From Eledone cirrhosa (taxonomy: Eukaryota), in the NCBI GenBank assembly GCA_964016885.1, contig OZ024743.1, forward strand, positions 172,360,001-172,424,000: 64,000 nt of DNA, read 5' to 3'. Positions within the stretch are counted from its first letter, which is position 1; each line of letters opens with the position of its first letter. Under the pieces are notes generated by a model. The model worked only from the letters and a program-made list of their open reading frames with translations, was not told the DNA's origin and did no database searches. Below are positions 3,901 through 37,571 of the stretch, one piece after another. A program made the translations under genes and the position numbers.

Positions 3901-4464
3901 AGCCGCCACTAAATTCTCCAAATTCAAACCACGACAAGCATAATTCGACGCAGCGATCTCACCATCCGGATTAGAATATCTACTACACCGACGCACACGG
4001 ACCAACTTTATACTTCCTCGCTGTGATTAACTGTCAGTTGACCAATCGGACATTAAATCAATCTCGGCAATCCCTCAGCTTTTTATAGACACATCCTCTC
4101 ACGCATAACGTTTCCATCAATCCTCACACCCATTAAGATAAAACACTCAAATTACCCCAACCTTAATCACCCATCTGTTATCATTGTCTCTTTTACTTTT
4201 TATTCTCTATTTATCTATTTATCGTTTTCTGATTTTTACTTTTATATTTAAATTTTTGTTTTCGACTCCTAATTCTATATTTTTATCGTTTATTATTTTC
4301 TATCTCTATTTTTTATCACTTTTTATTTCGCCAATTTATGAATTTAATCCACTATATTAGAATGGCGTCAATACACCAGTTTGCGACAGACCAGTATTTC
4401 ATCTACCATATCTCTTCTTCCCTAACCTTTTTCATGTTATTATTATTGTGGTGGATTGGCCAAA

Positions 4465-4650
4465 GGGCGGTGGATTGGCAGTATCGGTAGAGAGTCGGAC
4501 TCCATGCTTTGAAGCATAGAGTTTCGTCCCTTTATGATCTGAGTTCAAATCCCGCCGAAGTTAACATTGCCTTTCATCCTTATGGGGTCGATAAAATAAA
4601 GTACCAGTAATGCACTGGGTAATTGCTGGCCTTGTGCCAAAAGTAGAAAC
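4465..4650 (+). mobile_element. tRNA-derived SINE with Meta-domain-like core and (ATT)n tail
   Basis: A-box-like tggcagtatcgg, B-box gagttcaaatcc, core gcctttcatccttatggggtcgataaaataaagtacc; close copies at 29036, 44915, 51485 and 54131. Confidence 0.9.
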
Positions 4651-4663
4651 AATTATTATTATT

Positions 4664-33274: not shown

Positions 33275-36200
33275 TTCCTTGAATAACAACAATACGATCT
33301 TTTTTCTTTGTCCACAACCACCAGGTCAGGTCTATTGTGTTCCAGTTTTTTGTCCGTCTGTATCCTAAAATCCCACAGCACCTTCAACTGATTGTTCTCC
33401 ATCACCGCCTCTGGCCTATGCTCATACCATTTCTCAGTGTGTGGTAAATTGTTTACTTTGCACAGGTGCCAGTGGATCACCCTGCCCATCACATCGTGTC
33501 TCCAGCCCTTATAGTGGGTCTGGGCTAGGTGTTTACACTCGGACACAATGTGAGCCACAGTCTCCTCTCTCTCTCCACAGATCCTGCATGGTGGGCTAGC
33601 CTCCTCCTTGTAAATATGGTGCTTCAACCACTTCGTTTTGAGGGCCTGCTCCTGCGCAACCATTAGCATTCCTTCTGTAGCCTTTTTGAGGTCTCCTCTT
33701 CTCAACCAGTTCCATGTCTGTGGATCTCTAAATTCAGTTTTCTCAAAGAAGGTACTATGAAGGGATTTTCCCTTAAGGCTGCTCTTCCTCCTTGATGTTA
33801 TTTCCTCCTTGGACATCCCCTGGCCTACTGTACCCTCCTTCAGTACAGTTCTGAGCATTGGCTCCTTACTATAGGTCACGTATTTGTATAGGTTGTTTTT
33901 CTCCATCTGAACACAGTCCTCTATGCTGATAAGACCTCTTCCACCCTCAGATCTCCTTAGGTAGAGTCTATCGACATCACTCCTCTTGTGGAACATGTTG
34001 TAGATAGTCAATAGCTTCCTAGTCTTCCTATCCATTTCTTTTTGTTCAGCAACATTCCATCTCAGAATTCCCGCACTGTACCTAATAATAGACACAGCTC
34101 GGGAATTTACTGCGCTTATGGCATTTCTGCTGTTCAGATGTGACTTCAATACGCTCCTTACTCTCCGAATGTATTCAGTTCTTAACAATTCCTTCATTTT
34201 TTTATTCTTTATGCCATCAGCCTCCAGAACGCCCAAATACTTGTATCCTTCCTCAGAGTCAATTTCCTTTATCATCTCACCTGTTGGTATCTGGATCCCG
34301 TTACTTCTGCTCAACCTACCCCTCTTCATCACAATGACTCCACATTTACTAATACCAAACTGCATACATATATCACTGCTGAAAATACGGACAGTGCCAA
34401 CAAGCACATCCAACTCGTTCTCACTTTTCCCGAAGAGCTTAAGATCGTCCATGAAGAGGAGGTGATTGATGGTAAGCTCTCCCTTTCCCAACTTGTATCC
34501 TGCTCTCACTTTTCGCAGCATAATGGTCAAGGGCATCAGGGCAAGGACAAACAACAGAGGGGACAGGCTATCTCCCTGGAAGATACCTCTCTTGATCTTC
34601 ACGCTTCCCAAGGATACTCCAGTTGATGTCAACTCTGTCTCCCAGGACCCCATACTCCTGCCCAGCAACTGTCTGATGTTATCTGCCACCCTGAAGATCT
34701 CCAGGCTTTTGGTGATCCAAGAATGAGGCACCATGTCAAATGCCTTTCTGTAGTCTATCCATCCCATGGCAAGATCAGTGTGTCTCCTCCTGCAATTCCC
34801 CATTACCATCTTATCAATAAGTAACTGGTCCTTTGTACCACGTGACTTCTTTCGGCATCCTTTCTGTTCGTCCGGTAACAAGTTGTTTGTGTGGAGGTGG
34901 TGGTAGATTTCCTCAGACACAATGCTCGTCAACAGTTTCCACATTACGGACAGACATGTGATAGGTCTATAGTTGGTAACATCATTACCCTTGATTCGGT
35001 CTTTCATTATCAGAACTGTGGTACCTTTTGTCAACCACTCTGGCACCTCACCCGACACCAAGCAGTCATTGAACATGGCCGTCAGCTTCGGGTGGAGGGA
35101 TGTTAAATTTTTAATCCAATACCCCTGCACACCATCTGGGCCTGGTGATTTCCAGTTGGTTAGTTTTTTGGCCTGCCCCTTAAGAGTTTCAACTGTGATA
35201 CTCAAATCAGTTTGTTGGTGTGCCTGCTCACCGATCTCCCTCTGTACTGTCTCAATCCACCCTGCCTGGACATTATGTCTAACATCCTGCTCCCATATTC
35301 CTCTCCAGAATTTTTTAGTTTGCTCCGCCCCAGGGATCAAGTCGTTGCCTCTTTCTTTCCCCTCAAGCTGTCCAAACAGCATCTTCTGGTTGTTGTCGAA
35401 CATGCGGTTCTGTTTATACTGACTGTCTCTGTTCTCGTATCGCCTGATTTTTGCACTCTTTGCTACAATGTGTTGCTTCCGTTCCTCTATGATAATATTT
35501 AGATTTTTCCTCCTAGTTTTGTACTTTATTTCCAGTCTATTTTTAGTGCCTATGTTTTTTAGTGTCCCATTCAGTAGTGACTCAAGCTTTCCTATGTCAT
35601 TTCTCATTTCCCCGATTTGACCACTCAGTCGTTTCTTCCACCACGGCTCTGCTCTTTCTTGTCTGTTGTTTCCTCTCGCTTTTATACCAAGTAGTTTCCT
35701 CACCGTATTTGCTGTTGCTTTGAGGATATTGTTGCACTGGTGAAGGCTCCTCGCCTCAAGGTATGGGATGACTTTGTTTACCTTAGCTGTTGTTTCTTTT
35801 AACTTTTTCCTGTCTACAAATCTTAGGTTCATAGGTCTCCCACTATCGTTGTTCAATTCATCTACCACTAAATTTAGGATGTCAACCGAATCTTGTCCTA
35901 GCCTGTCAGCATTCATCTCCTCAGTGGCCGTATCTCTGTTCCAGGTATTATTTATCTCAGTATTCAGATCATTGTCTGCTTCGGGTGGTTCCTCCGTTCT
36001 CAGGACCTCTTCACCTTCATTTCCCACTGGCTCGCTTGTCTGGCATACTACACCCGCCATCTCCAAGCCATTCTCTCTGCTCAGTTCCTCCAGTTCCAGC
36101 TCGCTTATCCACCCATTAGTTCTTATTACCCGAGCCTGCCCGGCCAATTTTTGTTCATCTAATTTAAATAGACCAATCTCGTTCCAGATGTTATGCATCC

Positions 36201-37453
36201 GTCTCCTGTAGCCCCTCTCCTTGGGGTTACTTTTCAGGTAACATTGCATAACAGTTCTATTCAATTCTTTAGTCCAGTTGGTTCTGGCCCCTTTCCTTCT
36301 TCTTCTTCCTCCAACATCAGCAGTATTTGGTTGACAGTCAGGTTCCTGCTGCTGAGCCAGGGGGCACCTGTTGGGTGAGAGTCTGTCACATGACGTTCTA
36401 GTCTCCATTTCACCGTTATTCGAACTGTTTATGTTCGATATTTAAACACTCTTATCGAGGATTGGCGAATGTATGGTTACATAGCCATCTGTGGATTCGC
36501 CGTTCCACTTGGCCCTTGTGTGGCATTATCACCACGCTGTATACGAACACACATAAACAAACAAACACACAGGCAGAAAGGGCCCCAAAAATGAATAAGC
36601 ATAAGTTTCATTGTAATGTAGTGTTCGAATGTCTGACTTAGTTTTTGTTTTTTTAGCTTTAGTTTTTCCCCCCTCTTCTCTGTCCGTCCGCCTGCTTCTC
36701 TCTTCATTCTTATTTTCTTTACGTTTATTGTTTTTGTTTTTCTCTGTTTGTTTTTCTCGTTTTTTGCTGTTGTTGCTGTGCTGCTTTGGTTTTGTTGTTT
36801 GTTTTTTCTTTTTTCTTTTGAGTCTATTTTTGATGCCTTCCTCTTTTTTAGTAGTAGGAATTATATAATGTGGTGGCAGCAACCAGCTAGAAGAAGTGGA
36901 AGACAGTAGCGGCGGTAGCGATACTGAGACAGTGGTGGTGGTGATGTCGATACCGAGGCAGTGGTGGTGGCGATGTGATCGTATTACTGTGGTGATGGTG
37001 TTGTAGCGGTGGTAGCAGTGAAGGGGTGAAGGAGTGGTGATGGGATAGTGGTGGTAATGATGGCAGTAGTGAGCGGTGGTGGTGAAATTGCCGTTATCTG
37101 GCTGTTGTGTTTAGTGTACACAGGTGATGAGGTGGGTGGTGTATCTAGTTTCTGGTGTTGGTGAGTTTGGCTGTTCTATATAGTGTAGACAGAGGAGAGG
37201 AGGGGGGGGGTCTTCTTCCATTTATAGCCATTTTCTTTTTTGGATATACAGTGTACAATACAAAGTTGAATATTTGAATATTTGAGCCTTATAACAATAT
37301 ATTTTGGGTCCGAATTTTGGGGGGCTCAAGCCGGGTGCTTTACGTAGCATTTGTACTAAGAGTTGTTATTCCACAAATGATTTAAATATGTTAAAAATTC
37401 AAAACTTCCGGGAGCGATTTCATGACCTCCGCCACCTCGTGCGTCTTCTTCCC
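33275..37453 (-). mobile_element. Dong family A copy with intact RT (FMDD) but a deleted RLE C-terminus and 3' UTR; ORF 33217..36408
   Basis: ORF is open from METRTS to RPDLVVVDKEKRS, then reads into the TAA tract; full 5' leader present. Confidence 0.93.
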
Positions 37454-37571
37454 TTATTATTATTATTATTATTATTATTATTATTATTATTATTATTATT
37501 ATTATTATTATTATTATTGTTGTTGTTGTTGTTGTTGTTGTTGTTGTTGTTGTTGCTGTTGTTGTTGTTAT
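37454..37571. repeat. (TTA)n grading into (TTG)n; end of the main array
   Basis: Direct reading. Confidence 0.97.

Follow-up and report, generated by a model that had tools for sequence, protein, structure and literature searches.

A 33-kb run of retroelements occupies positions 4450-37453 of a 64,000-nucleotide stretch of the Eledone cirrhosa genome (assembly GCA_964016885.1, contig OZ024743.1, forward-strand positions 172,360,001 to 172,424,000; hereafter, the window). We interpret this array as a stack of separate insertions of retroelements without long terminal repeats (non-LTR retroelements) in one (TAA/TTA)n microsatellite, made by two machineries that prime on opposite strands, and assign to this interpretation a probability of about 0.8. 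Self-BLAST, a repeat scan, the list of open reading frames (ORFs), Pfam and reading of the junctions resolved the array into 13 elements or fragments that lie end to end in the order S1, T1, a1, B1, A1, T2, a2, B2, A3, A', S2, B3 and A4. They comprise two lineages of Dong/R4-type elements (Dong A and Dong B), a Tx1-type long interspersed element (LINE) and a short interspersed element (SINE) of ~190 bp. The components of the array and its principal tracts are as follows (RT, reverse transcriptase).

4450-4651, plus strand: S1, tRNA-type SINE with its body from ~4463, flanked by a 13-bp duplication (4437 and 4653)
4664-5963, plus strand: T1, 5'-truncated Tx1-type LINE (zf-RVT), 19% diverged from T2
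5985-6206, minus strand: a1, 222-bp 3' fragment of Dong A, A2-type by sequence comparison
6228-10908, minus strand: B1, full-length Dong B with a broken ORF, an A-like 5' head (10539-10908) and a TAA-bearing insert (~10351-10538)
10909-10998, plus strand: (TTA)30 junction tract from the repeat scan
10999-15547, minus strand: A1, full-length Dong A with a single ORF at 14470-11087 (1127 aa: RT, CCHC knuckle, PD-D nuclease)
15548-15615, plus strand: head-to-head junction (TAA)3 + (TTA)19, from the repeat scan and junction reading
15616-21524, plus strand: T2, full-length Tx1-type LINE with ORF1 from 15823 and ORF2 at 17862-21281
15616-15800, plus strand: X, 185 bp ending in a SINE-like 3' motif and (TTA)3; the end is like that of the SINE (0/2000 shuffles as good)
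21541-21597, minus strand: a2, 3' fragment of Dong A, 57 bp long and with the same sequence as A1
21616-24278, minus strand: B2, 5'-truncated Dong B with a 779-aa open stretch
24339-27466, minus strand: A3, Dong A 5'-truncated from A position ~1412
27467-29011, minus strand: A', internal part of a Dong A of A2 type (~1331-2910 in A positions), fused to A3 without TTA
29033-29217, plus strand: S2, SINE between (TTA)7 and (TTA)17
29270-33238, minus strand: B3, Dong B that has lost ~900 bp internally, carries a SINE 3' scrap (32380-32402) and has a ~560-bp 5' head of Dong A type
33266-37453, minus strand: A4, Dong A of nearly full length, whose 3' deletion is filled by a short fold-back
37454-37571, plus strand: right end of the array, (TTA)21 followed by (TTG)n, from the repeat scan

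Three or more TTA units were found on the plus strand at 13 of the 14 junctions (12 internal and 2 outer), namely at 4437, 4652, 5969, 6206, 10909, 15556, 21525, 21598, 24278, 29012, 29218, 33239 and 37454. TAA/TTA runs make up only 507 of the 33,135 array bases (1.5%), and the ~25 kb of the window outside the array and a second cluster nearby contain a single such run; the coincidence of TTA with junctions is therefore far above chance. The strands are divided just as regularly, with all nine Dong-type segments on the minus strand and all four Tx1 and SINE copies on the plus strand. The first-pass annotation, made from the sequence alone, had described 13 elements in series joined by (TTA)n at all junctions but one, with Dong A and B always on minus and Tx1 and SINE always on plus, and both observations are borne out, the exceptional junction being placed at 27466. 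No element of the array interrupts the body of another, the 27466 joint excepted. Under random nesting nearly all insertions would be expected inside earlier elements, and this joint is the only possible such case; the first description, of elements in series, is therefore correct. The tract at 15548-15615 is the tail of neither neighbour, and thus represents a remnant of the target. Two further TTA runs are internal to elements, at 10506 (5' region of B1) and at 15792.

Copies within the array are 0-19% apart and have different 5' ends, which makes them separate insertions rather than parts of one duplicated block: Dong A copies differ by 0-10% and Dong B bodies by ~3-5%, each with its own 5' end, and T1 and T2 differ by 19%. 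Tandem duplication or unequal crossing-over of a Tx1-Dong A-Dong B or Dong B-Dong A unit would fit the order of elements (Tx1-A fragment-B occurs twice and B-A three times), and the 27466 joint may be a product of deletion or recombination. We nevertheless find this scenario barely credible, and a duplicated unit was rejected on the divergences between copies. Besides the distance between T1 and T2, the heads of B1 and B3 differ by 16%, a1 (222 bp, A2-type) and a2 (57 bp, A1-type) represent different events, and neighbours in the putative repeats are no closer to each other than non-neighbours.

The same polarity rule extends beyond the range covered by the first-pass annotation, to a second nest at 41153-46562, 4 kb from the array, where the elements are mostly flipped together with the repeat.

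41153-41299, plus strand: start of the second nest, where (TAA)n tracts and repeats of an AGGAAA unit adjoin the plus-strand Dong at its 5' end
41300-44901, plus strand: A2-type Dong A with TAA on both sides
44914-45105, minus strand: S3, SINE beside the plus-strand Dong
45146-46562, minus strand: A5, Dong A truncated at the 5' end; it stands tail-to-tail with the plus-strand Dong and has (TTA)15 at its 5' side

The polarity of the repeat flips at 45118, and A5 then lies on the minus strand between TTA tracts. Since strand and repeat invert together in this nest, polarity follows the repeat rather than the locus. At the 5' junction of the plus-strand Dong, the AGGAAA + (TAA)n unit is repeated over 41153-41310, likely by slippage between the first bases of the element and the TAA repeat.

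The Dong-type elements account for the minus-strand half of this pattern. Every Dong copy has (TAA)n at both ends in the sense of the element, save at the joint between A3 and A'. The A1 protein matches only RVT_1 in Pfam, with no apurinic/apyrimidinic-type (APE) endonuclease, and its closest solved relatives are R2 proteins, the match to the R2 nuclease being weak; one residue of the RT catalytic motif is substituted. Residues C938, C941, H950, C955, R967-H968, P1024-D1025, D1040 and K1056 are invariant across 25 aligned proteins, including Dong B. The Dong A and Dong B proteins are 41% identical and, in a tree of 36 proteins built with FastTree, fall into two separate subgroups of one set of proteins with a restriction-enzyme-like endonuclease (RLE). 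The homologues retrieved included no named Dong or R4, so membership in the Dong/R4 clade is based on architecture and target. The target agrees with that of Dong (R4 clade, RLE-type) in Bombyx mori, Anopheles gambiae and the snail Biomphalaria glabrata, reported to be TAA (PMC3812793), and target specificity is reported for RLE clades (PMC4640811). Like known Dong, the elements of the array use a TAA microsatellite, lie sense to TAA and encode RT and a C-terminal PD-D nuclease in a single ORF; unlike known Dong, two distant lineages (41%) here share 5' heads and stack with Tx1 and SINE copies of opposite polarity. An HDV-like (hepatitis delta virus) ribozyme is reported at the 5' end of silkworm Dong (PMC3774820), whereas none was found in the four Dong heads by a home-made descriptor applied without a positive control; nor was there an Rfam match at the Dong 5' heads, which fold no better than shuffled sequences.

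To follow this polarity outside the window, we used the best 80 of 460 confirmed metagenome-contig loci with Dong relatives, the flanks being judged in the 38 loci that reach the C-terminus. Within 300 bp downstream, 22 of these have TAA, 2 have TTA and 14 have neither; on the upstream side, 9 have TAA and none has TTA. Dong copies are thus sense to TAA both here and among relatives, as the earlier claim that Dong targets TAA had it. Head-to-tail Dong-TAA-Dong arrangements were flagged in 3 of the 80 loci (L042, L056 and L076), and by eye another was recognized in L035. In L021 (2960-3347), Dong is followed by (TAA)7, a reversed tRNA-SINE with canonical A and B boxes, and (TAA)5; the two-polarity arrangement of the array thus recurs there with an unrelated SINE, evidently in another organism. 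No Dong loci were found in viral contigs. In L008, positions 4022-4115 hold (TTA)31 after the Dong relative; this locus is either an exception to the polarity of the clade or a tail-to-tail junction.

With similar nests 4 kb away and in other organisms, the earlier idea of one special site could not be kept. The same nests bear on the possibility that the host keeps the array as a trap akin to a cluster for Piwi-interacting RNAs (piRNAs) or as a selected safe harbour, transcribed as a unit. Its strong strand bias, its 33-kb length of retroelement DNA that is almost pure and in part young, the lack of a recognizable host gene among the 29 ORFs scanned and the reported existence of piRNA clusters in molluscs (PMC6128900) would all suit such a role. 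However, the insertion mechanism alone explains the strand bias, and recurrence of the arrangement nearby and elsewhere further lowers the odds of host retention, which we regard as unlikely. No host function is needed to explain the array.

The plus-strand half of the pattern begins with the Tx1-type LINE. ORF1 of T2 carries a CCHC knuckle, resembles CCHC proteins and has a frame break at poly-C 16226-16237; ORF2 contains the Pfam domains Exo_endo_phos (APE), RVT_1 and zf-RVT, with L1 ORF2p as its top PDB match (E 1.6e-49). A CCHC knuckle is a mark of Tx1. The Tx1 label for T1 and T2 is a provisional one, taken from this architecture, with no named Tx1 among 22 homologues. Both Tx1 copies in the window have TTA on both sides, and no further Tx1 loci with flanks were found in metagenome and prokaryote contigs. 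Segment X may be the 5' region of T2 (perhaps captured) or a separate, TTA-ended 14th element.

The SINE appears to depend on this LINE. Its last 40 bases resemble the end of T1 to a degree matched by none of 2000 shuffles, and its 3' end does not match Dong A or B (99% of shuffles as good). SINE and Tx1-type LINE thus likely represent one machinery, judging from these sequence similarities, which would leave two machineries at the array rather than four. Four independent targeting families were rejected on the likeness of the SINE 3' end to T1, and the earlier statement that four families co-amplify the site should be amended in the same way. Strict patterns for RNA polymerase III A and B boxes matched none of four SINE copies, variant boxes being visible by eye in the alignment; ARAGORN called no tRNA, and Rfam gave nothing relevant. 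We presume a likeness to the Octopus OR-type or MetaSINE family.

Two further copies of the array's SINE lie outside any tract.

51485-51640: S5, SINE outside the tracts
54128-54318, minus strand: S7, SINE that lies in no tract; its duplication is 11 bp long and a TTA tail is missing

Three of the five copies of the array's SINE are thus found in TAA/TTA tracts, which constitute 1.2% of the whole window; the SINE therefore prefers the tract without obeying a strict rule. Target-site duplications are 13 bp long in S1, 12-14 bp in S3 and 11 bp in S7. Delivery of a long TTA tail by the SINE itself was rejected, given these duplications and the tailless S7: the TTA beside SINE copies is mostly target duplication and little tail.

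These copies also bear on a stronger form of our interpretation, in which the Tx1-type LINE is strictly (TTA)n-specific, a mirror image of Dong, and the scattered SINEs are old or off-target. TTA at both ends of both Tx1 copies speaks for it, as does the landing of T2 and S2 in tracts that occupy 1.5% of a LINE-rich region; other Tx1 families, namely Kibi, Koshi and crocodilian families, are reported to be microsatellite-specific (PMC4494074). Yet there are two Tx1 copies only, the SINE with the Tx1-like 3' end is inserted outside tracts too, there with an 11-bp duplication of the ordinary kind, and SINE flanks in public sequencing runs are diverse, so strict specificity is a possibility that we hold tentatively, at well below even odds.

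Reuse of the target is recorded in the junctions themselves. The 13-mer TTATTATTATTGT occurs at 4437, 4653 and 5976 and flanks both S1 and T1 on both sides. The duplication of S3 extends over the first base of the 3' end of the adjacent Dong, T2 (counted from 15616) and a2 have one non-repeat base in common, and overall the duplications at S1, T1, S3 and T2 extend 1-2 bases past the repeat. Because TTATTATTATTGT recurs and the S3 and T2 duplications reach non-repeat bases, junctions created by earlier insertions were evidently reused. The proposal that each insertion regenerates its target through its tail therefore holds in part: reuse of the target stands, and for the SINE the new TTA is mostly duplicated target instead of tail.

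These features suggest the following scheme of array growth. In the established process of target-primed reverse transcription, priming by the 3' end of the RNA takes place at a nick that the nuclease makes in one strand. (i) Dong/R4-type elements of lineages A and B, with RT and a C-terminal PD-D nuclease, lie sense to TAA and have the repeat on both sides, as observed here and as published; (ii) the Tx1-type LINE lies sense to TTA, a placement presumably made by its APE and RT; and (iii) the SINE would ride on Tx1 proteins via the common 3' end and so take the Tx1 polarity. Nicking, together with pairing of the RNA at its 3' end, would select one strand of the asymmetric repeat, so that orientation would be fixed for each enzyme and would flip where the repeat flips. 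Each insertion would split or duplicate the tract, through target duplication and, in the LINEs, probably through a repeat tail, so that n insertions leave n+1 targets and new copies would keep landing between elements and not inside them. For the SINE, and perhaps for Tx1, the scheme supposes a preference for short TTAT-like sites, which are densest in the tract, rather than strict specificity.

Public sequencing runs provided a partial view of the same joints. Of 24 runs listed, 20 contain part of 3600-10900, with a top share of 0.55, and no RNA run is among them. Four runs (X1, X4, X5 and X22) were aligned to 3600-10920, depths over this interval not being equivalent to copy numbers, and 15 of 579 joints and 24 of 135,426 pieces were examined. 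In nine of the 15 joints listed, a SINE 3' end meets the 5' part of a SINE that runs the same way, with 17-43 contigs each in X1, and some of these SINE-to-SINE joints carry other letters in between. In X22, one joint connects the 3' ends of a SINE and a Dong A in the relative polarity of the array (274 reads, 11 starts). Two more of the listed joints place a SINE 3' piece within the 5' region of Dong B.

The runs also bear on mis-assembly, that is, on the joining of unrelated copies at the microsatellites. Low-complexity junctions of up to 90 bp, the longest tract, would invite such an error, and no contig or read examined bridges a junction. However, six junction tracts are just 9-21 bp long, the duplications around S1, T1, S3 and T2 include non-repeat bases, and each copy has private variants and its own truncation point. 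The window sequence has no N gaps, and the same types of joint recur in independent runs and organisms. We accordingly regard an assembly artefact as very improbable.

Several observations weigh against serial insertion by two machineries, or limit it. As to the SINE, its 3' end resembles the 3' end of T2 only weakly (7% of shuffles as good), S2 has no target-site duplication, two of the five copies lie outside tracts, and the letters behind the SINE 3' end in the runs are diverse (agreement 0.38-0.46). Targeting by Tx1 is known from the two copies alone. Among Dong relatives, L008 and L010 are followed by TTA. Within the array, 27466 is the sole junction without (TTA)n and needs some other event, and so do the short inverted (TAA)3 runs on the plus strand at 10493 and 15548. 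The duplications are mostly repeat, with 1-2 informative bases each, and the order of T1 and a1 is ambiguous because the 13-mer TTATTATTATTGT is also present at the right end of the array, at 37508. Finally, none of the 24 pieces examined in the runs bridges any array junction.

Beyond their placement, the Dong elements bear traces of exchange and repair. Both Dong B copies that retain a 5' end carry Dong A-like heads, at 32680-33238 in B3 and 10539-10908 in B1. Over its first 300 columns the B3 head differs from A1 and A4 by 5.8-6.5%, and over the following 320 it differs from A4 by 4.6%; past column ~630, B3 tracks B1. The B1 head is ~16% from Dong A and 16% from the B3 head. As the B3 head is ~6% from Dong A while the proteins are 41% identical, at least one head exchange between the lineages would be recent, and exchange of 5' heads between Dong A and Dong B is likely from the sequence comparison. 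A full-text literature search found no published account of 5' head exchange between two distant Dong lineages.

The 5' regions of Dong B contain inserts as well. The SINE 3' scrap at 32380-32402 lies in the 5' region of Dong B at a TTATT-like spot, and the corresponding joint (4607->10044) is present in all four aligned runs, so the scrap is a family-wide feature of Dong B. The B1 insert at 10351-10538 (~190 bp, with TAA/TTA runs) is missing from B3; further copies of it exist, since a contig of run X4 crosses into the insert with differences. At 27466, an A2-type internal piece meets an A1-type 3' part with about two bases in common, and this joint is a template jump or a deletion. In A4, a perfect 13-bp fold-back of the element's own end fills the 3' deletion at 33266-33295, which suggests snap-back repair at the tract.

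Other features of the window lie at the borders of the nests or outside them. The left flank of the array (3352-4436, plus strand) is a degenerate Penelope-like element with a GIY-YIG-type remnant and a 3' end that runs directly into TTATTATT; we assume the Penelope label from its motifs and the GIY-YIG lead. The Penelope-like end is present in two copies, 4384-4444 and 46652-46717, both of which run into TTATTATT and border a nest, and may thus be able to seed a TTA tract. A microsatellite bias is reported for Penelope-like elements (PMC8557442).

Long inverted repeats beside TA repeats were found at 38045-38354 / 40060-40370 (311 bp, 94%), enclosing a Penelope-like remnant, and at 57262-61565 (1.3 kb, 91%); they are possibly DNA transposons or fold-backs. 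Positions 47800-49745 hold degenerate pieces of another RLE-type retroelement, with no TAA tracts at the flanks and with RHD and PD-D motifs at 48996-49745. A near-perfect hairpin at 50678-50750 matches Rfam mir-451 below threshold (47 bits, cut-off 66.5) and is probably a short inverted repeat. A hammerhead match at 62459-62503 is likewise below threshold (26 bits, cut-off 34).

TRAS and SART are both APE elements of the R1 clade. Comparison with known systems placed them among the closest parallels: in the (TTAGG)n repeats of Bombyx mori they are reported to insert in opposite fixed directions set by their endonucleases, ~three repeat units being sufficient (PMC7265360). As there, two families share one asymmetric repeat in opposite fixed directions (9 Dong minus, 4 Tx1/SINE plus). 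In contrast to the telomeric TTAGG and poly(A) tails of TRAS/SART, the array occupies an interstitial TAA microsatellite flanked by other repeats on both sides, and its nucleases are unrelated (RLE versus APE), Dong having no APE.

Among Tx1 elements, Kibi, Koshi and crocodilian families are reported to prefer microsatellites, with TC, TTC, TTCC, TTTC or DNA transposons as targets, the Tx1-driven SINEU forms tandem insertions around a duplicated target, and a family is called target-specific when the target is present in >20% of flanks genome-wide (PMC4494074). The array resembles these systems in combining a microsatellite-preferring Tx1-type LINE, a passenger SINE and sequential insertion into a duplicated target. 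It differs in the TTA target and the opposite-facing RLE co-tenant, neither of which appears in the accessible text of that source (PMC4494074). Shared tails of SINEs and LINEs, and 5' ends shared between LINE families, are also on record in the portions available of PMC3747384, PMC4824008 and PMC4758252.

New Alu copies insert into earlier A-tails. Similarly, new SINE copies here lie beside earlier ones, tail and target being a simple repeat, and clustering and tandem inserts of Alu are reported (PMC3415434). Alu differs in having one enzyme, one polarity, a weak target preference and no contiguous 30-kb stacks of full-length LINEs.

In Octopus vulgaris, Dong-R4 is reported as the largest recently active LINE group, with 1129 insertions, and retroelement hotspots are described, unexplained in the accessible text (PMC13282606). 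The element set of the array fits the reported complement of this species: Dong-R4, L1-Tx1, Penelope and SINEs (PMC13282606, PMC8967140).

Most ingredients of the array are thus known: targeting of TAA by Dong, microsatellite targeting by Tx1 and opposite-facing co-tenants have all been published. For nesting of Tx1 and SINE on the TTA strand together with Dong, no account was found in a full-text search that did not extend to Repbase, the Zenodo library of PMC13282606 or the majority of subscription journals. It is conceivable, and in our judgement rather doubtful, that the Tx1 LINE and SINE evolved to read the TTA strand of Dong's TAA microsatellite, so that two unrelated nucleases would build self-extending nests genome-wide that serve as cradles of chimeric retrotransposons and possibly as dual-strand piRNA traps. 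The traded heads of the two Dong lineages constitute a modest but genuine evolutionary finding. If the targeting proposed here operates genome-wide, TTA would join the known targets of Tx1, and the array would present a natural pair of unrelated nucleases, RLE and APE, that choose opposite strands of a single trinucleotide repeat and could serve the study of target choice. Local retroelement hotspots in this genome would then be explained by the chemistry of insertion and not by selection.

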